From NCBI RefSeq assembly GCF_016026235.1, contig NZ_CP065613.1: a stretch of 64,000 bases of DNA. The stretch is one strand, 5' to 3'. The stretch's first letter is position 1. Each line of letters starts with the position of its first letter. The translations under genes were made by a program, and so were the position numbers. The stretch is from Escherichia coli (lineage in GTDB: Bacteria > Pseudomonadota > Gammaproteobacteria > Enterobacterales > Enterobacteriaceae). Shown here in pieces: positions 53,880 through 64,000 of this stretch. The notes below the pieces were generated by a model that did no database searches, was not told the DNA's origin, and saw only the letters and a list, made by a program, of their open reading frames with translations.

Positions 53880-54533
53880 TTAATCTGTCACTTCTCGCCA
53901 TTCGCCATTAGCAAGATTATCCAAAGAGTAATCACCCATCGCATAGCGAATCAGTCGCAGCGTGGGGAAACCAACATGGGCGGTCATGCGGCGCACCTGG
54001 CGATTACGTCCTTCATATAAGGTGATCTTCAGCCAGCTGGTGGGAATACTTTTGCGTTCACGAATTGGTGGATTCCGCGGCCATAACCACGCAGGTTCGT
54101 CAACCAGCTCCGCGCCGGCGGGCAGGGTAGGGCCATCATTTAAGGTTACGCCATTGCGCAAGGCTTCAAGTGCGTCTTGTGTGGGAATACCTTCCACCTG
54201 CACATAATAGATTTTTCCGGTGCGTTTACCCGGCTGGGTTAAACGCGCCTGCAACGCGCCGTTATTGGTCAGCACCAGTAACCCTTCGCTATCGCGGTCA
54301 AGACGACCTGCTGCATAAACGCCCTGAACCGGGATGAATTCTTTTAATGTTTTGCGTCCGGCTTCATCGGTGAACTGCGGAAGAACATCGTAGGGTTTAT
54401 TGAACAGGATCACACGCGTGGGCTGGTTTTCAGGTTTACGCCTGGTAGAACGTTGCGAGCTGAATCGCTTAACCTGGTGATTTCTAAAAGAAGTTTTTTG
54501 CATGGTATTTTCAGAGATTATGAATTGCCGCAT
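53880..54533 (-). CDS. rluE: 23S rRNA pseudouridine synthase RluE
   Basis: 217-aa RsuA-family ORF ([17 protein letters not shown]). Confidence 0.9.
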
Positions 54534-54705
54534 TATAGCCTAATAACGCGCATCTTTCATGACGGCAAACAATAGGGTAGTATTGACAAGCCAATTACAA
54601 ATCATTAACAAAAAAATTGCTCTAAAGCATCCGTATCGCAGGACGCAAACGCATATGCAACGTGGTGGCAGACGAGCAAACCAGTAGCGCTCGAAGGAGA
54701 GGTGA

Positions 54706-55956
54706 ATGGAAAGTAAAGTAGTTGTTCCGGCACAAGGCAAGAAGATCACCCTGCAAAACGGCAAACTCAACGTTCCTGAAAATCCGATTATCCCTTACAT
54801 TGAAGGTGATGGAATCGGTGTAGATGTAACCCCAGCCATGCTGAAAGTGGTCGATGCTGCAGTCGAGAAAGCCTATAAAGGTGAGCGTAAAATCTCCTGG
54901 ATGGAAATTTACACCGGTGAAAAATCCACACAGGTTTATGGTCAGGACGTCTGGTTGCCTGCTGAAACTCTTGATCTGATTCGTGAATATCGCGTTGCTA
55001 TTAAAGGCCCGCTGACCACTCCGGTTGGTGGCGGTATTCGTTCTCTCAACGTTGCCCTGCGCCAGGAACTGGATCTCTACATCTGCCTGCGTCCGGTACG
55101 TTACTATCAGGGCACCCCAAGCCCGGTTAAACACCCTGAACTGACCGATATGGTTATCTTCCGTGAAAACTCGGAAGACATTTATGCAGGTATCGAATGG
55201 AAAGCTGACTCTGCCGACGCTGAGAAAGTGATTAAATTCCTGCGTGAAGAGATGGGCGTGAAGAAAATTCGCTTCCCGGAACATTGTGGTATCGGTATTA
55301 AGCCGTGTTCAGAAGAAGGCACTAAACGTCTGGTTCGTGCAGCGATCGAATACGCAATTGCTAACGATCGTGACTCTGTGACTCTGGTACACAAAGGCAA
55401 TATCATGAAGTTCACCGAAGGCGCGTTTAAAGACTGGGGCTACCAGCTTGCGCGTGAAGAGTTTGGCGGTGAACCGATCGACGGTGGCCCGTGGCTGAAA
55501 GTCAAAAACCCGAACACCGGCAAAGAGATCGTCATTAAAGACGTGATCGCTGATGCGTTCCTGCAACAGATCCTGCTGCGTCCGGCTGAATATGATGTTA
55601 TCGCCTGTATGAACCTGAACGGTGACTACATTTCTGACGCCCTGGCAGCGCAGGTTGGCGGTATCGGTATCGCCCCTGGCGCAAACATCGGTGACGAATG
55701 CGCCCTGTTTGAAGCTACCCACGGTACTGCGCCGAAATATGCCGGTCAGGACAAAGTTAACCCAGGTTCTATTATTCTCTCTGCTGAGATGATGTTACGC
55801 CACATGGGTTGGACCGAAGCCGCAGACCTGATTGTTAAAGGTATGGAAGGCGCAATCAATGCGAAGACCGTAACCTATGACTTCGAACGTCTGATGGAAG
55901 GCGCTAAACTGCTGAAATGTTCAGAGTTTGGTGATGCGATCATCAAAAATATGTAA
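54706..55956 (+). CDS. icd: Isocitrate dehydrogenase (NADP)
   Basis: 416-aa [43 protein letters not shown]; full length and uninterrupted. Confidence 0.97.
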
Positions 55957-55978
55957 ACACTACATGTGTTAAATATTT

Positions 55979-56010
55979 AAACGGGCGTATAACACGCCCG
56001 TTGTTTTATT
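55979..56010 (+). terminator. Intrinsic terminator after icd
   Basis: Stem aaacgggcg/cgcccgtt with loop tataaca, followed by gttttattt. Confidence 0.7.
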
Positions 56011-56309
56011 TATGTGGATATTATTAATAGCATATCGAGCATATTTATATAAAACCCATTACTTGAGCCCATATGGGCATATTTTTATAATACAACTCTT
56101 ATGCAAACATTTATTTGTTATTTCGCTTTCTCCTGGAGGACACTCTTGACTGCTTTTGAGTAAACTCCATAAATTCTTGTTGAATGGTGCAATGTTATAA
56201 ATAGTTATAGGATATTCTTTATCCTTAAGGATAATACCAGGCTTAACCAGTGTAGGTAATGCTGCCAACTTACTGATTTAGTGTATGATGGTGATTTTAA
56301 GGTGCTTGC

Positions 56310-56585
56310 GTGGCTTCCATTTCCATCAGATGTCCTTCCTGCTCCGCTACTGAAGGCGTGGTGCGTAACGGCAAAAGCACTGCCGGACATCAGCGCTATC
56401 TCTGCTCTCATTGCCGTAAAACATGGCAACTACAGTTCACTTACACCGCCTCTCAGCCCGGTACGCACCAGAAAATCATTGATATGGCCATGAATGGCGT
56501 CGGATGTCGCGCCAGTGCACGCATTATGGGCGTTGGCCTCAACACGGTTTTACGTCACTTAAAAAACTCAGGCCGCAGTCGGTAA
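56310..56585 (+). CDS. insA: IS1 InsA (transposition inhibitor / N-terminal part of the transposase)
   Basis: 91-aa [43 protein letters not shown]... with a zinc-finger Cys cluster; the A6C slippery site TTAAAAAAC lies at 56559-56567. Confidence 0.93.
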
Positions 56586-57007
56586 CCTCGCGCATACAAC
56601 CGGGCAGTGATGTGATTGTCTGCGCTGAAATGGACGAACAGTGGGGCTACGTCGGTGCTAAATCACGTCAGCGCTGGCTGTTTTACGCGTATGACAGGAT
56701 ACGGAGGACGGTTGTGGCGCACGTCTTCGGTGAACGCACTCTGGCCACACTGGAGCGTCTTCTGAGCCTGCTGTCGGCCTTTGAGGTCGTGGTATGGATG
56801 ACGGATGGCTGGCCGCTGTATGAATCACGCCTGAAGGGAAAGCTGCACGTTATCAGCAAGCGTTACACTCAGCGCATTGAGCGACATAATCTGAATCTGA
56901 GACAACATCTGGCAAGGCTGGGACGGAAGTCACTGTCGTTCTCAAAATCGGTGGAGCTGCATGACAAGGTCATCGGGCATTATCTGAACATAAAACACTA
57001 TCAGTAA
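56504..57007 (+). CDS. insB: IS1 InsB reading frame, expressed as the InsAB' transposase by -1 frameshifting
   Basis: 167-aa -1-frame ORF overlapping the insA 3' end and containing the DDE-like catalytic region. Confidence 0.9.
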
Positions 57008-57854
57008 GTTGGAGTCATTACCACCAGTGTAAATATACTTCCAGGAGGAAGAAATATAGTAGATTGATACCAGATAATCATTTTCATATCACCCCATATG
57101 GCTGAAAAAGATATGCCGCATGTAGGTTGAATTACCGTGTCAATTACTACCCACTTCATTTGTTATGTCTTATCCCACGGTATTTAATATAGTTCATTTG
57201 GATGTTCATTTCTTTATTTTGCATATGAGTATATTACCCCTTCAAAAAATAAATTAATTAAAACGATTGCTTATATAAAACAAAATTTAAAGCAAGGAAT
57301 CTCAATGGATGTTAAACAAAATGAGATTTAGTGAAAACAATAAATTATTCACTTCGTTTTAGATTTGTTTAGCTATAATGTTATACATTCAAATGACTGA
57401 CCATCCTGTAATTAAAACATAGCCTTTATGCTACTTTGTGCCAATTTGCTAAACATTATGGTTGCCTTTTTATATAACGATAATAATGAATATAAGCATG
57501 ACATGAGAATAAGGTTTCAATTTTTGAGTTATATAGGAAAGGTTTAACCTGTTCCTGGCTAAAATACATATAACTGGATGATGACTAAACCAAAACACAT
57601 GTGCGTTAAGTATTGAAACGGGCGTATGGCACGCCCGTTGTTTTTATAAATATATTAAACGTTATGAAATAACGTATAGAAAGTCAAGTGATCACATTTC
57701 AAATATCAATTTGATAGTATTGGCCTGGTGATTATTTATGGGTAGCAATAAAAGGACAGTATTTATCATCCATAGGGATAGTCTCTGTACTTTTATTCCC
57801 ATTATGCTAATGCCTTACTGAATTATGAAGCATTTCTTAAGCATCCAACTTTAG

Positions 57855-58259
57855 CTAGATTAATGGTTTATTATTTTCTACATCTTCAATATATAAAAGC
57901 GTATTATCAATGGCGTAGTAACTGCGTTTGTTATGATTAACATCAGTAACCCAACGGAAAACGCCCGCGTCTGCCAGTGTTGAACAGTATTCCCGAAATG
58001 TAGATTTTCCGCAAATATGAAGCAATGCGGCCTCTTTTATTTTAGCAGGGTTCTTGGTCGTACTAACTTTTAACAGGTTCCTGGTTCCTCTTAATAACAA
58101 AACCGTGTCATCGTGAGTAATAATTCTGATGTTATCCGTAGCCAGATAATAAATGTAATGTGCAATACGGTGATGTTTTAATTCTGAATAAAACCAGGAG
58201 AAGTTTTGCTCTTTTCTCACTTGCTCAAACATCTTTTGAAAAACAACGACCTGATCCAT
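57855..58259 (-). CDS. ycgX: DUF1398-family protein YcgX
   Basis: 134-aa ORF MDQVVVFQKMFEQVRKEQNFSWFYSELKHH flanked by AT-rich DNA, upstream of bluR; identity from recalled gene order. Confidence 0.7.
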   Translation of the reverse strand: MDQVVVFQKMFEQVRKEQNFSWFYSELKHHRIAHYIYYLATDNIRIITHDDTVLLLRGTRNLLKVSTTKNPAKIKEAALLHICGKSTFREYCSTLADAGVFRWVTDVNHNKRSYYAIDNTLLYIEDVENNKPLI

Positions 58260-58479
58260 CAGGATAATAACCTCTTGTTAGTTGTGAGACTGCGTAGTGT
58301 GCACGATCGGTTTTACCACTTCAATCTGGTCTGTTCTTTGGCTGTGATATGTACAGAGTGTGATAGAGGGATTACCTGAATTCTCCCGGTGAGCATTTTG
58401 CAACGGACCAGCTCCGGTACAAATGCTGTTGTGGGTTCAGATTATAACATTCTGTCTAAGGGGCAGGATAAAGGTGAAA

Positions 58480-59211
58480 TTAGGGGGCATGAAAGATGAC
58501 TTTATAACCTTGCTCACCCCAGTGTTGTAAAAGTTCATTTTGCCTTCTCGTTGGTGCCATGCCTGTCCAGACAATCAATGTTTGCGTCGGGAACAGTTCT
58601 GGGCGCGGTGATTCAATGGGATCAGCAAGAACAGAAATGTGCCATCCTGACAATGATAAACGCCATGCTTCCAGCCACAATCGTGCTCTCTCTTCAACAT
58701 TCCATGCCATCAGAATGGCTTCTTTACCGGGCTTACGGCGCATTTCGAAAAGCGAGGCTGCTGCGTATTCAATTAGTGCGCCGTCAAACATACTGCTCAT
58801 AATGCGGGAGGTGTTGTGATCAAGCACGAGACGCTGGCGAACAGGAAGGTAAACATGATTAATCAATTGATCTACTGGGTACTCTCGACCCAGTGAAATA
58901 ATTCTCGCGCGTAGTTTGGCAGGATTAGCCATACGAAGAATTGACATCATCTCTTCTTGCAGGCGGCTCCAGTCATCTTCCGTATCCTGGCTGGTGGTTT
59001 CCAGTAATGCTTTAACTTTGCCTACAGGGACGCCATTACTTATCCAACGCTTGATCTCTTCGATGCGTTGTATGTCTTCTTCATCAAAGAGTCGGTGTCC
59101 GCCTTCACTGCGCTGTGGTTTTAACAAACCGTAGCGGCGTTGCCAGGCCCGGAGAGTGACAGGATTAATCCCGCAACGTTCAGCAACATCACCAATGCTG
59201 TAATAAGCCAC
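58480..59211 (-). CDS. bluR: MerR-family transcriptional repressor BluR (YcgE)
   Basis: 243-aa ORF with an N-terminal MerR HTH ([32 protein letters not shown]). Confidence 0.88.
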
Positions 59212-59405
59212 AATTCCTCCTTGCGGTCATAAATCTCCGTCGCCTGTACACGACCCAATAATACTTTGTACAATATACGCTAAAATTGTACAAAGTATAA
59301 ATAAGATTTCAGCTAAATTGGATGAAACATTATTTTTAATGTGGATTAAATTAAAGCATAACGTATTCATTTTCACGATGATTTACTGAAATCATGTGCT
59401 GAAAA

Positions 59406-60617
59406 TTATTTTTTTTCTGGCCACGCAACTGAAGGGATACCATTCAATTTAGCTTTAGCAAACAGATCCCCCTGAAACATCTCAATTCCTGCGGATTCAA
59501 GCCACATCCACTCTTCTGGTGTTGCCACGCCCATAGCAGAGACTTGAATTTCAAGTGATGTACAGCATTTTATGATCGCCTGAATAATTGCCTGCCGTGG
59601 TCCGCTTTTATGAACATTGGTAATCAATTCCTGACTGATTTTAATTCTGTCAGGCTGGAAGCGTGACAGGAGTAACAAACCAGCAAAACCTGCGCCAAAA
59701 TGATCAATTGCTACACTGATACCGGCAGCCTTTAGCGATTTAACCGCTTCGGCAAACTCATCAAACCGAGATATGACTTCACTTTCAGTAAATTCAACGA
59801 TGATTTGTTCAGGCACCAGAGCATTGGCCTTTATTTCATCAAGTAAAAAAGAGACTGCGTCAGGCTCGTTAACCAGGGTCATAGGTAATAGATTGATTGA
59901 AATCATTTTATCACCGAGCTCAAGTGCGTGTGCCATCGCGAATGCAAGCGCCTTACTTTTAAGATCCGCTGTGTAGATTTCCCCGTCTTTACGCTGCCCA
60001 ACCGCTATAGCTGACGGGCTGTCTTCATTTTTTTGCACAATGGCTTCAAAAGCGATTATCCGCCGCGATAAGGGATCAACAATAGGATGAAAGGCAAAGT
60101 GGTCGTTTATAGTTGGTGAAAGGGTACAGGAATCAAGTTCTTTATCAGATCTGTCAGCGATAAAAAGCCAGGAGTCTTCAGCAGGAATCTCGAAATAGGT
60201 TGATTGTTCGGTTGCAAGGACAAAAGTACGAAAAAATTGTAGCGCTCTGTCATCATAAGTTAGCTGAAATTTTGATGTGCCTTTGTCGAATACGGCCTGT
60301 AAAACGTCATCTCGCTCGTGTAGGCGTAAATCAAATAATTCCATTCCCGCTTTGCCAAAACGGCGAGCAGGCGCGTAATCGCACAGCAGCTCAACAATAT
60401 TATAGTGCCGTGGATCCTGGCATATAGCCCGATATATCATTTTAACCTGTTCTTCCGGACCTTCCAGAAGCTGGAAAAAATGAGAACCATTAAACAGTAA
60501 GATCCCTGTTACGTCAGACTGCATGTTCCTGCGATTTGCAATCGAAACCATTTCTTCGATTTTTTTGACAGGTTCGTCGTCACGTATATGGCTACGATAA
60601 ATAAGGGTGGTAAGCAT
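59406..60617 (-). CDS. bluF: Blue-light sensor BluF (YcgF): BLUF domain plus degenerate EAL domain
   Basis: Start set at MLTTLIYRSHIRDD to give 403 aa; BLUF N-terminal domain (VTGILLFNGSHFFQLLEGP) and an EAL-like C-terminus; the track ORF is 57 codons longer. Confidence 0.88.
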   Translation of the reverse strand: MLTTLIYRSHIRDDEPVKKIEEMVSIANRRNMQSDVTGILLFNGSHFFQLLEGPEEQVKMIYRAICQDPRHYNIVELLCDYAPARRFGKAGMELFDLRLHERDDVLQAVFDKGTSKFQLTYDDRALQFFRTFVLATEQSTYFEIPAEDSWLFIADRSDKELDSCTLSPTINDHFAFHPIVDPLSRRIIAFEAIVQKNEDSPSAIAVGQRKDGEIYTADLKSKALAFAMAHALELGDKMISINLLPMTLVNEPDAVSFLLDEIKANALVPEQIIVEFTESEVISRFDEFAEAVKSLKAAGISVAIDHFGAGFAGLLLLSRFQPDRIKISQELITNVHKSGPRQAIIQAIIKCCTSLEIQVSAMGVATPEEWMWLESAGIEMFQGDLFAKAKLNGIPSVAWPEKK

Positions 60618-60930
60618 TAACTGTCCAGGGTAATGGGAGTGGCGAGAGTAAGACGGTAACAGACATATCTTCCGGTGTCTTTCTTTTAATACCAAAACAT
60701 AACTGTTTCTTTGCATTGATAGAAAATGGAAAAAGTTGAACACGAGTTGGCGAAAAATCTTGTATAGTTTGTCAGTTAAATGATGCAATATGTTTTATCA
60801 TAACGTATTGTTTTATATGTATTAGCACTAATTGCAAAAAATTAATTTATCATTCTGTACACATATTTCGTACAAGTTTGCTATTGTTACCTCACTTAAC
60901 ATTGATTAACATTTTTAACAGAGGCGTAGC

Positions 60931-61167
60931 ATGCATCAAAATTCAGTGACTTTAGATTCTGCGGGAGCAATCACTCGTTACTTTGCAAAAGCTAACTTGC
61001 CTACTCAGCAGGAAACTCTCGGGGAAATTGTGACTGAGATTTTGAAAGATGGACGTAATCTGAGTCGAAAGTCGCTTTGTGCCAAACTTCTTTGCCGACT
61101 GGAACAAGCGACAGGGGAAGAGGAACAGAAACATTATAATGCACTAATTGGGTTGCTTTTTGAATAA
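60931..61167 (+). CDS. ycgZ: Small protein YcgZ (connector of the bluR-controlled operon)
   Basis: 78-aa ORF divergent from bluF, first gene of a four-gene small-protein operon. Confidence 0.8.
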   Translation: MHQNSVTLDSAGAITRYFAKANLPTQQETLGEIVTEILKDGRNLSRKSLCAKLLCRLEQATGEEEQKHYNALIGLLFE

Positions 61168-61209
61168 TGCAACAGCCTGATTATTTAACAGGTTAGCTAT
61201 GAAGTCGTT

Positions 61210-61482
61210 ATGAAGACATCTGATAATGAACGTATAAAATATGAAATTACTGGCCAGGCGGTGCTCCAGATACTGCGCATGAAGATAAATTTTTCGGTGC
61301 AGACTCTTATTAAGCAATTACTCGTAATGAAATCGGCTGAGGAAAATGCTTTCCGACGAGATTTAATTGACAGCATAATTCGTGATTTTAGCAACAGTGA
61401 TACAGGAGGGCCAAACCGAAGAACAGCGATAGCTGACAATAAAAGTATGTTCAATGGTAAGAAAATAAACAGAATACATTAA
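61210..61482 (+). CDS. ymgA: Small protein YmgA
   Basis: 90-aa ORF 42 bp after ycgZ. Confidence 0.8.
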   Translation: MKTSDNERIKYEITGQAVLQILRMKINFSVQTLIKQLLVMKSAEENAFRRDLIDSIIRDFSNSDTGGPNRRTAIADNKSMFNGKKINRIH

Positions 61483-61510
61483 AATTTCATAAGTAAGATG
61501 AGAGGTTACC

Positions 61511-61777
61511 ATGCTTGAAGATACTACAATTCATAATGCAATAACTGATAAAGCGTTATCAAGTTACTTTCGCAGTTCGGGTAATTTGTTAGAAGAAGAG
61601 TCAGCAGTGTTAGGGCAGGCTGTGACTAATTTAATGCTTTCAGGCGATAATGTTAATAATAAAAATATTATCTTAAGTCTGATACACTCCCTGGAAACAA
61701 CAAGTGATATTCTCAAAGCTGATGTGATCAGAAAAACACTGGAAATCGTGTTGCGATACACAGCGGATGACATGTAA
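61511..61777 (+). CDS. ariR: Regulator of acid resistance and biofilm AriR (YmgB)
   Basis: 88-aa [34 protein letters not shown]. Confidence 0.8.
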
Positions 61778-61889
61778 CTTTTAATTATTAAGTATAAGTT
61801 TATAGAAAACTCATTCATCTTATTTTTGTCTGTCGCTTTAGACTATACACAGCATAATTTTATTGGGTTAATATTTCTACGAGGCTGAC

Positions 61890-62138
61890 ATGAATAATTC
61901 AATCCCAGAGAGATTTATTTTTCAATGTGCTTTGTTTAAAAATCTCGAGAGGGAGGTGTTCATGACGCATGGGTATGTTGATAGTCATATTATTGATCAG
62001 GCTTTACGCTTGCGTTTAAAAGATGAAACTAGTGTGATTCTTTCTGATCTCTATCTGCAAATCTTGCAGTACATTGAAATGCATAAGACTACACTAACGG
62101 ATATCATTATTAATGACAGGGAATCCGTGCTCTCTTAG
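61890..62138 (+). CDS. ymgC: Small protein YmgC
   Basis: 82-aa ORF, last gene of the ycgZ-ymgA-ariR-ymgC cluster. Confidence 0.75.
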   Translation: MNNSIPERFIFQCALFKNLEREVFMTHGYVDSHIIDQALRLRLKDETSVILSDLYLQILQYIEMHKTTLTDIIINDRESVLS

Positions 62139-62473
62139 AACTTGAGTAAGGTTATAGAATAAACATCAGCTGTATCATCATGCTGGTGCAAAGTGAGCAT
62201 TTCAGGCGTTATGCTTTCTTAATATATCCGCAATATCAGGGGGCAAACAGGAATGGAGAGCGCTCGTTTTCCATTCTTGACGCCTGATATCCCACCTAAA
62301 TTGTTTAATTCTGCCTACATTGTGCTCAATAATTAATAGGTTAGATGAAGATGGAGAAAATTTTATCTTCGGCGTGGATATTTCTTATGCTCTCTACCAT
62401 GCTCTCTGTAGACGCCAGCGCGAGCGAATGAACGTCATTTTCATGTATTAAACCCTTTGTTCGGGACAAGCGA

Positions 62474-63997
62474 ATGCGCAATACACTCATACCCATCCTC
62501 GTTGCGATATGCTTGTTTATTACCGGTGTCGCTATTTTGAACATCCAGCTCTGGTATTCCGCAAAAGCAGAGTACCTGGCGGGAGCAAGATATGCCGCCA
62601 ACAATATCAATCATATACTTGAAGAAGCGTCACAGGCGACTCAAACAGCGGTTAACATTGCCGGGAAGGAATGCGACCTCGAGGAGCAATATCAGCTTGG
62701 CACTGAAGCAGCTCTGAAACCTCACCTGCGCACAATCATCATTCTCAAACAGGGAATAGTCTGGTGTACATCCCTGCCTGGGAATCGGGTCCTGCTGTCT
62801 CGTATTCCTGTTGTCCCGGACAGTAATTTGCTGTTGGCTCCGGCAATCGACACCGTTAATAGATTACCTATTCTGCTCTATCAGAGCCAATTTGCAGATA
62901 CGCGCATTTTGGTTACGATAAGTGATCAGCATATTCGCGGGGCGCTTAATGTACCCTTGAAAGGGGTAAGGTATGTATTACGCGTGGCGGATGACATTAT
63001 TGGACCTACGGGTGATGTGATGACGCTTAATGGACATTATCCCTATGCCGAGAAGGTTCACTCCACAAAATATCATTTCACTATTATCTTTAACCCGCCA
63101 CCACTCTTTAGCTTCTACAGACTTATCGATAAAGGCTTTGGGATTTTGATATTTATTCTGTTAATCGCCTGCGCCGCTGCCTTCCTGCTAGATAGGTATT
63201 TCAATAAAAGCGCAACGCCTGAAGAGATCCTGCGGCGGGCTATAAATAATGGGGAGATCGTCCCTTTTTACCAACCAGTGGTGAATGGTCGGGAAGGGAC
63301 ATTGCGGGGAGTTGAGGTGTTAGCCCGCTGGAAACAACCTCACGGTGGATATATTTCACCCGCGGCATTTATTCCACTTGCTGAAAAATCCGGATTAATC
63401 GTTCCGCTTACGCAAAGCCTGATGAATCAGGTTGCCAGACAGATGAACGCTATCGCGAGTAAATTGCCGGAAGGTTTTCATATTGGAATTAATTTTAGCG
63501 CCTCGCATATTATTTCGCCGACGTTTGTCGACGAGTGCTTAAATTACCGTGACAGTTTTACCCGCCGCGATTTAAACCTCGTTCTGGAAGTTACCGAGCG
63601 TGAGCCATTAAATGTTGATGAAAGTCTGGTTCAGCGGTTGAACATTCTGCATGAAAATGGTTTTGTCATCGCGCTGGATGATTTCGGTACTGGCTACTCA
63701 GGGCTTTCTTATCTGCATGACCTGCATATTGATTATATCAAAATTGATCACAGTTTCGTTGGCCGCGTCAACGCAGACCCAGAATCAACCCGAATTCTGG
63801 ATTGTGTATTGGATATGGCGCGTAAACTTTCGATCAGTATCGTCGCTGAAGGTGTCGAAACGAAAGAACAACTTGATTATCTGAACCAAAATAATATCAC
63901 ATTTCAGCAGGGTTATTATTTCTATAAACCTGTTACATACATCGACCTGGTCAAAATTATCCTTTCTAAACCGAAGGTGAAGGTTGTGGTTGAGTGA
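62474..63997 (+). CDS. pdeG: Cyclic-di-GMP phosphodiesterase PdeG (YcgG): CSS-motif sensor plus EAL domain
   Basis: 507-aa ORF with an N-terminal transmembrane helix, periplasmic Cys-containing sensor domain, second transmembrane helix and a C-terminal EAL domain (EVLARW...DDFGTGYS). Confidence 0.88.
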   Translation: MRNTLIPILVAICLFITGVAILNIQLWYSAKAEYLAGARYAANNINHILEEASQATQTAVNIAGKECDLEEQYQLGTEAALKPHLRTIIILKQGIVWCTSLPGNRVLLSRIPVVPDSNLLLAPAIDTVNRLPILLYQSQFADTRILVTISDQHIRGALNVPLKGVRYVLRVADDIIGPTGDVMTLNGHYPYAEKVHSTKYHFTIIFNPPPLFSFYRLIDKGFGILIFILLIACAAAFLLDRYFNKSATPEEILRRAINNGEIVPFYQPVVNGREGTLRGVEVLARWKQPHGGYISPAAFIPLAEKSGLIVPLTQSLMNQVARQMNAIASKLPEGFHIGINFSASHIISPTFVDECLNYRDSFTRRDLNLVLEVTEREPLNVDESLVQRLNILHENGFVIALDDFGTGYSGLSYLHDLHIDYIKIDHSFVGRVNADPESTRILDCVLDMARKLSISIVAEGVETKEQLDYLNQNNITFQQGYYFYKPVTYIDLVKIILSKPKVKVVVE

Positions 63998-64000
63998 AAA

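Follow-up and report, generated by a model that had tools for sequence, protein, structure and literature searches.

The light- and cold-responsive biofilm switch of Escherichia coli K-12 was reportedly described by Tschowri et al. in 2009 and 2012 and by Kettles et al. in 2019. In the mechanism of this BluF/BluR/Ymg pathway as shown in K-12 (PMC3509220, PMC6900184), BluR, a MerR-family paralogue of MlrA, occupies a pair of TGTACA-type half-sites that overlap the −35 element and spacer of the ycgZ promoter, which is used by sigma-S and sigma-70, and BluF combines a photoactive BLUF domain with a catalytically dead EAL domain. Under blue light and at low temperature, BluF binds BluR and takes it off the DNA, and this release allows the ycgZ-ymgA-ariR-ymgC mRNA to be made. 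The small proteins so encoded then act on RcsC, thereby raising colanic acid and RprA and lowering CsgD and curli. MarA also activates the promoter, as an additional input, via a marbox around −62. The biochemistry of BluF, namely its light-dependent binding of BluR and its lack of phosphodiesterase activity, comes from K-12 only (PMC3509220).

Here, we analysed the corresponding module in a 64,000-nucleotide stretch of E. coli DNA (hereafter the window), where it lies beside a copy of IS1 (Table 1). All coding and cis-acting parts of the module are present and unaltered, and it is highly probable that the region represents the canonical pathway in working order, with IS1 having no effect on the module in cis. 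The module is an already known system, as an earlier note on this DNA had recognised and as PMC3509220 bears out.

Table 1 Features of the module and of the adjacent IS1 insertion, in window coordinates.
Feature	Position	Strand	Description
IS1	56255-57022	+ (insA/insB)	768 bp, inside iraM; context, outside the module
Intrinsic-terminator hairpin	57617-57647	+	between IS1 and ycgX; perfect 9-bp G+C-rich stem, −15.3 kcal/mol, then GTTTTTAT
bluR (ycgE)	58480-59211	-	GTG start, 243 aa; MerR-family repressor, MlrA subfamily
Inverted repeat ATACTTTGTACAAT / ATTGTACAAAGTAT	59261-59298	.	perfect, 14 nt, 10-nt gap; two TGTACA hexamers 20 bp apart
bluF (ycgF)	59406-60617	-	403 aa counted from the K-12 start; BLUF-EAL photoreceptor, degenerate EAL, anti-repressor of BluR
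bluF/ycgZ divergent control region	60618-60930	.	313 bp, 32.3% G+C
MarA box GCACTAATTGCAAAA	60825-60839	+	centre ~62-63 bp upstream of the ycgZ start site; forward; identical to K-12
BluR operator TGTACAcatatttcGTACA (TGTACA-N8-GTACA)	60856-60874	+	overlaps −35 and spacer of the ycgZ promoter; identical to K-12
ycgZ extended −10 (TGcTATTGT) and start site	60879-60895	+	start ~60895, 36 nt 5′ of ATG
ycgZ	60931-61167	+	78 aa
ymgA	61210-61482	+	90 aa
ariR (ymgB)	61511-61777	+	88 aa
ymgC	61890-62138	+	82 aa

Gene content and proteins of the module

Open reading frames, Pfam matches and comparison with K-12 agreed on the identities, intactness and coordinates of bluR, bluF, ycgZ, ymgA, ariR and ymgC given in the earlier note. 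By ORF and protein comparison, all six genes have the length found in K-12 MG1655 and zero internal stops, and the K-12 module (b1162-b1167) is alike in genes, order, orientation and the length of the 313-bp spacer, differing by 0-6 substitutions per protein (BluR 1, BluF 6, YcgZ 2, YmgA 4, AriR 1 and YmgC 0) and by 15 substitutions in the spacer. The RefSeq gene names of a near-identical genome, FDAARGOS_943 (NZ_CP065615.1), agree with these assignments; this genome is collinear with window positions 43112-64000 and shows 2 differences in the 6978 bp (~7 kb) to the right of the IS1 site. FDAARGOS_943 differs in having a prophage beside potB, which the window lacks, and in the N250Y change of its BluF, where the window keeps the K-12 residue N.

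BluR contained an N-terminal MerR_1 helix-turn-helix (Pfam, 1.4e-18) followed by MlrA_helical (5e-29) and MlrA_C (3e-32) domains, a likeness to MlrA, and differed from the K-12 protein by the single change T152A (K-12 residue first; 1 in 243 aa, 99.6% identity). Its score with the NCBIfam MlrA equivalog, 268 bits, falls below the cut-off of 417, so the protein is a paralogue of MlrA and not MlrA itself. Together with the near-identity to K-12 and with ycgX and bluF as neighbours, as in K-12, this identifies it as the orthologue of K-12 b1162; the gene is annotated as bluR in FDAARGOS_943. Binding of BluR to the ycgZ promoter, and its repression, are predicted here from a target site identical to that of K-12.

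BluF contained a BLUF domain at residues 2-92 (2.8e-24) and an EAL domain at residues 173-388 (3.1e-49), with Y7, N31, Q49 and M92 present as in K-12; Tyr7, Gln49 and Met92 are the flavin and photocycle residues of BLUF domains. The six changes relative to K-12 (G156R, A165T, T227A, N260D, I292V and I397V; 98.5% identity) spare the BLUF domain and fall in the linker and the EAL part contacting BluR. The BLUF-EAL architecture is common along its whole length to BlrP1 of Klebsiella pneumoniae (PDB 3GFX; E = 8e-98), an active light-regulated c-di-GMP phosphodiesterase. BlrP1 retains the EALxR (EALIR), DDFG, KxD (KVD) and EGVE motifs, whereas BluF here has EAIVQ, DHFG, KIS and MGVA, exactly the pattern of K-12 and consistent with the description of the K-12 protein (PMC3509220). 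As predicted from these motifs, BluF is of the degenerate, protein-binding type and a non-enzyme.

Among the small connector proteins, YcgZ scored 123.8 bits against the NCBIfam YcgZ_fam equivalog (cut-off 80), AriR matched Pfam YmgB (6.8e-26), a model that also matches YcgZ, and YmgC was 100% identical to its K-12 counterpart. YmgA and YmgC matched no Pfam or NCBIfam model and were assigned by K-12 identity and position; YmgA, whose allele carries the NCBI product name ‘hypothetical protein’, shows 95.6% identity to the K-12 protein at the same length and position. In other genera a gene of 183-186 aa lies 3′ of ariR, and the possibility that the 82-aa YmgC is its remnant was rejected (BLASTP E = 19). 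A hairpin 3′ of ymgC (62248-62279) has a strong stem and was rejected as an intrinsic terminator because it lacks a T-run, and no Rfam RNA family reached the gathering threshold across 54000-64000.

The module is widespread, with a match in 5070 of 5426 complete E. coli genomes, 4895 of which cover at least 80% of it. The gene order is common to six other genera (Citrobacter, Pseudocitrobacter, Kluyvera, Klebsiella sp., Lelliottia and Pectobacterium), in which bluF likewise adjoins a bluR homologue and the ycgZ-ymgAB unit.

Control region of the ycgZ promoter

The spacer between bluF and ycgZ has been called extremely AT-rich. Its length and low G+C content were confirmed (32.3% against 50.2% for the whole window, with only 1.3% of all 313-bp windows equal or lower), but ‘extremely’ somewhat overstates the case, as the region upstream of iraM lies lower still at 24.6%. 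The further claim that this composition is expected of a BluR-controlled promoter holds insofar as this is an AT-rich divergent control region, but AT-richness alone is no marker of BluR control. The markers are the TGTACA operator, a sigma-S type extended −10 and the marbox, and all three are here.

The operator motif, described from a DNase I footprint (PMC3509220), had one exact match in the window, with 0.61 expected at ≤1 mismatch, and is kept in the six other genera. The marbox was located from its published position and consensus (PMC6900184), while the start site and the extended −10 were placed on the window by inference, from the published start-site distance (PMC3509220) and the published extended −10 and sigma-38 features (PMC6900184). 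The 15 spacer substitutions all lie outside the operator, marbox and −10; one is at 60891, about −4 of the ycgZ promoter, and two are at 60673-60674, in what is presumably the spacer of the bluF promoter. With its three elements unchanged relative to K-12, the ycgZ promoter is predicted to be served by sigma-S and sigma-70, repressed by BluR and activated by MarA.

IS1 insertion in iraM and its possible effects on the module

The IS1-disrupted locus reported beside the module proved to be iraM, interrupted by a 768-bp IS1 flanked by a 9-bp target duplication ACCAGTGTA at 56246-56254 and 57023-57031. The element has imperfect terminal inverted repeats and both the insA and insB′ frames; many E. 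coli genomes contain copies that match it at 100% identity and carry the annotation IS1 family transposase. The iraM frame is interrupted after about codon 45, leaving coding capacity for a 52-aa N-terminal fragment only, and in silico removal of IS1 together with one duplication copy restored a 107-aa IraM. This junction was found in none of the 5426 complete E. coli genomes, 15 of which have iraM with a nearby IS1 at other sites. K-12 differs in carrying the e14 prophage, absent here, between icd and iraM, while FDAARGOS_943 has an intact iraM and no IS1. The IS1 next to the module inactivates iraM only.

Any link between IS1 and the module is more likely to act in trans than in cis, through loss of IraM, less sigma-S and lower ycgZ promoter activity. 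IraM is the PhoPQ-induced anti-adaptor that shields sigma-S from RssB/ClpXP; its role is described in PMC10844676. Given that iraM is broken by IS1, sigma-S would go unstabilised during Mg2+ starvation, and sigma-S-dependent ycgZ transcription would be lower in that condition only, so that at low Mg2+ the ycgZ-ymgABC promoter may show lower activity than it would with iraM+ in place. The further anti-adaptors IraP and IraD, and other controls acting on sigma-S, would still operate. In addition, sigma-70 with MarA also uses the ycgZ promoter (PMC6900184), and we regard the proposed drop in activity as possible but rather doubtful. It would add to, and not replace, the reading of the module as the canonical pathway in working order.

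The earlier note had raised polar or read-through effects of IS1 on neighbouring genes, which the layout does not support. IS elements can be polar or drive outward transcription, and this copy is separated by only 833 bp from the stop codon of ycgX and by 1458 bp from where bluR ends, with a weak promoter-like match inside it pointing rightward (56862-56890). However, iraM is the last minus-strand gene before the convergent icd and lies downstream of the leftward ycgX, bluR and bluF; therefore, IS1 at this place can have no polar effect on these genes, and any polarity points away from the module. For polarity, IS1 would have to lie upstream in the same transcription unit, whereas the gene it occupies is a separate one that has a promoter of its own, and individual start sites have been mapped for bluR, bluF and ycgZ (PMC3509220). 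Transcripts leaving IS1 rightward, the way insA/insB are read, would run antisense to ycgX, bluR and bluF and would meet, 595 bp past the element, the terminator hairpin, a second copy of the icd terminator whose stem is perfect here and has one mismatch in K-12; the ycgZ promoter lies 3873 bp away, leaving ~3.9 kb to cross. A consensus promoter scan found no strong outward promoter at the right end of IS1 and 21 promoter-like sites in the region against 20.1 expected from shuffled sequence; since its promoter and terminator counts were no higher than those of shuffles and it missed the mapped ycgZ promoter, the scan was relied on for the terminator hairpin only. Judging from sequence alone, Rho-dependent or long-range effects of IS1 are conceivable, and it is very unlikely that IS1 acts in cis, through polarity or read-through, to change how ycgX-bluR or ycgZ-ymgC is expressed.

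Least credible of all is that allelic differences (the BluF linker and EAL changes and promoter substitutions) have functionally altered the module in this lineage, a reading that can point to the 6, 2 and 4 substitutions in BluF, YcgZ and YmgA, the 15 intergenic ones and the NCBI name of the YmgA allele, but that is countered by known functional residues and cis elements that are all unchanged, by a divergence typical of E. coli (of 5072 matching records, 5052 share 95-99% identity with this allele) and by orthologues in other genera that diverge far more within the same architecture.

A conserved palindrome over the bluR promoter

Within the canonical arrangement, a perfect inverted repeat spans −33 to +5 of the bluR promoter, covering the spacer, the −10 and the start site at 59265 (PMC3509220). 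None such is expected by chance (0 in shuffled sequence). The repeat is identical in K-12, aligned bluR upstream regions from seven genera are invariant at its two TGTACA hexamers and nowhere else, and the palindrome is also found 5′ of the single MlrA/BluR-like gene of Erwinia and Pantoea.

The (T)GTACA half-site is common to this palindrome, the ycgZ operator and the MlrA operator at csgD, AAAGTTGTACA(12N)TGCACAATTTT, and the hexamer spacing of 20 bp is nearer to that of the MlrA site (18 bp) than to that of the ycgZ operator (13 bp). No TGTACA palindrome was present in the mlrA promoter of E. coli K-12. SrsR (YgfI) has been published as acting at bluR, but its box, TCAGATTTTGC, bears no relation to the palindrome. 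Taking these observations together, we tentatively propose that the palindrome is a candidate BluR auto-operator or an entry point for the paralogue MlrA, a possibility that we take seriously without yet favouring it. In the main literature on the system, the Genes & Development 2009 paper aside, we found no mention of the palindrome or of BluR autoregulation, which may already be known.

Implications

A well-studied light and cold biofilm switch is intact in this strain, which matters little as a finding on the window. FDAARGOS_943 offers a natural near-isogenic comparator for the effect of the iraM::IS1 allele. The conserved TGTACA palindrome points to a possible feedback loop in the BluF/BluR circuit: if it is a BluR operator, the removal of BluR by BluF in blue light or cold would de-repress bluR as well, creating a negative feedback that would reset the switch.

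The BluR-BluF module is intact and ordinary

Comparison with K-12 MG1655 (NC_000913.3, 1209000-1220000), Pfam and NCBIfam bore out the gene identities and the prior description of the module given in the earlier note, and open reading frames were found at every position that it had assigned to the six genes. Length, start codon and stop equal those of K-12 in all six, none of which contains an internal stop, and the amino acid substitutions relative to K-12 number one in BluR, six in BluF, two in YcgZ, four in YmgA, one in AriR and none in YmgC. BluR carries the Pfam domains MerR_1, MlrA_helical and MlrA_C and, as expected of an MlrA paralogue, its 268 bits fall far under the 417 required by the NCBIfam MlrA equivalog. 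BluF contains BLUF (residues 2-92) and EAL (173-388) domains, Pfam YmgB matches AriR and, weakly, YcgZ, and YcgZ exceeds the cut-off of the NCBIfam YcgZ equivalog, while no Pfam or NCBIfam model matched YmgA or YmgC. The window's YmgA allele is labelled 'hypothetical protein' in many RefSeq genomes, despite 95.6% identity to K-12 YmgA.

Features of the module and of the IS1-disrupted iraM locus, in window coordinates
Feature	Position	Strand	Remarks
IS1	56255-57022	+	insA/insB rightward; 768 bp, bounds from FDAARGOS_943 alignment
Terminator hairpin	57617-57647	+	AACGGGCGTatggcACGCCCGTT then GTTTTTAT; -15.3 kcal/mol, z = -3.0
bluR	58480-59211	-	GTG start
bluF	59406-60617	-	longest ORF to 60788; K-12 start MLTTLIY at 60617
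marbox	60825-60839		GCACTAATTGCAAAA; motif of PMC6900184
BluR operator	60856-60874		TGTACAcatatttcGTACA; motif of PMC3509220
ycgZ extended -10	60879-60887		TGcTATTGT; start site near 60895, placement inferred
ycgZ	60931-61167	+	
ymgA	61210-61482	+	
ariR	61511-61777	+	
ymgC	61890-62138	+	

A 4-kb module query matched 5070 of 5426 complete E. coli genomes, with at least 80% covered in 4895. Elsewhere, BluR homologues are 66-83% identical and ariR-ymgA-ycgZ is divergent from bluF-bluR as in the window, an arrangement found in Citrobacter, Pseudocitrobacter, Kluyvera, Klebsiella sp., Lelliottia and Pectobacterium. Being so widespread in E. coli and other genera, as Tschowri et al. 2012 had already concluded, the module is known and ordinary. 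After ariR, a protein of 183-186 aa with a faint GerE match takes the place of ymgC in Citrobacter, Pseudocitrobacter, Kluyvera and Klebsiella sp. (loci L004, 1730-2281; L005, 1682-2239; L006, 1669-2229; L007, 1653-2204), and in these four genera it has no detectable similarity to YmgC. In the window, a strong 14-bp hairpin lacking a T-run, not a canonical terminator, lies 110 bp past ymgC (62248-62279).

Aligned to Klebsiella BlrP1 (PDB 3GFX, an active phosphodiesterase; E = 8e-98), window BluF has EAIVQ for EALIR, DHFG for DDFG, KIS for KVD and MGVA for EGVE, and the BLUF-domain residues Y7, N31, Q49 and M92 are retained. Judged from these motifs, it is of the degenerate, predicted non-enzymatic type, the pattern reported for E. 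coli BluF, which works via BluR binding rather than c-di-GMP degradation (PMC3509220). DHFG or DNFG likewise replaces DDFG in all six other genera with the module.

The ycgZ promoter elements are conserved

The AT-richness noted earlier for the 313-bp bluF-ycgZ spacer (60618-60930; also 313 bp in K-12) was confirmed: its G+C content is 32.3% against 50.2% for the window, and a value this low or lower occurs in just 1.3% of the 313-bp windows, the DNA upstream of iraM being lower still (24.6%). The published BluR footprint covers a GTACA...GTACA / TGTAC...GTACA motif over the ycgZ promoter -35 and spacer (PMC3509220); MarA targets a marbox in forward orientation, 62 bp upstream from the ycgZ transcription start, and an extended -10 is used by both sigma-70 and sigma-38 (PMC6900184). 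No other exact match to the operator motif occurs in the 64 kb, where 0.61 matches would be expected with up to one mismatch allowed. The spacer differs from K-12 by 15 substitutions, all outside the operator, marbox and extended -10, the nearest to these elements being at 60891 (about -4).

IS1 interrupts iraM

IS1 is flanked by a 9-bp target duplication, ACCAGTGTA (56246-56254 and 57023-57031), and splits iraM after about codon 45; with the element removed, an IraM of 107 aa is recovered, so no gene other than iraM is interrupted. Identical copies of IS1 occur commonly across E. coli; the window has only this one. The IS1-iraM junction occurs in none of the 5426 genomes; in 15 of them an IS1 lies near iraM but at a different site.

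FDAARGOS_943, which is collinear with window positions 43112-64000, has an intact iraM and is thus a natural comparator for iraM::IS1. Of the 6978 positions right of the insertion site, two differ: one (58335) lies in the ycgX-bluR spacer, and the other (59870; 7571 in the FDAARGOS_943 locus L001) gives BluF N250Y in FDAARGOS_943. Because N250 is shared by the window and K-12, the unusual allele is that of FDAARGOS_943. Over window 1-43111, FDAARGOS_943 is not collinear; its IS-riddled lambdoid prophage beside potB does not match the window.

In K-12, the e14 prophage lies between icd and iraM; it is absent from the window (55957-56060), where icd is one intact gene of 416 aa, with its terminator and then iraM immediately after it. 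Two direct-repeat copies of 43 nt (55965-56007 and 57602-57644), which share 88% identity and include the icd terminator hairpin, flank the AT-rich 1.6-kb iraM-ymgK segment plus IS1. This arrangement suggests a past insertion of the segment at the 3' end of icd, the site that e14 occupies in K-12.

An effect of IS1 on the module in trans is tentatively conceivable: IraM guards sigma-S against RssB/ClpXP in Mg2+ starvation (PMC10844676), and the ycgZ operon is sigma-S dependent in part, so loss of IraM might reach the operon via sigma-S. We rate this link more credible than the polar or read-through effects in cis that the earlier note proposed, against which gene direction, terminator and distance all speak. 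Since iraM, adjoining convergent icd, lies downstream of ycgX, bluR and bluF (all - strand), IS1 polarity points away from the module; bluR, bluF and ycgZ are each transcribed from a separate promoter (PMC3509220); and rightward read-out would be antisense and reach a terminator after 595 bp, with the ycgZ promoter 3873 bp from IS1. This terminator is the second icd terminator copy, its stem perfect in the window lineage and bearing one mismatch in K-12.

A candidate auto-operator overlaps the bluR promoter

Within the bluF-bluR spacer, we identified a perfect 14-nt inverted repeat, ATACTTTGTACAAT / ATTGTACAAAGTAT, with a 10-nt gap (59261-59298), identical in K-12. It covers about -33 to +5 of the bluR start site, which corresponds to 59265 (PMC3509220), and includes the TATATT -10. 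A scan for TTGTACAA-N8-16-TTGTACAA gave a single hit in the window and no hit in 100 shuffles. When bluR upstream regions from seven genera were aligned, no columns were invariant except those of the two T(G/A)TACA hexamers, whose spacing is 19-20 bp in six genera and, as in the ycgZ operator, 13 bp in Lelliottia. As the half-site is that recognised by BluR and MlrA, the palindrome is possibly a BluR/MlrA auto-operator, with autoregulation the simplest reading. We found no mention of it in the papers covered on this system.

Upstream of mlrA, E. coli K-12 lacks the palindrome; the same palindrome, as TGTACA-N13-TGTACA, precedes the Erwinia and Pantoea homologues (loci L010 and L011, 5001-5735), which occupy the mlrA chromosomal position beside yohO and yehW-Z. 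These homologues share 63-64% identity with E. coli BluR, the published identity between E. coli BluR and MlrA being 49%. Such features may bear on which of the two paralogues, BluR or MlrA, is ancestral.
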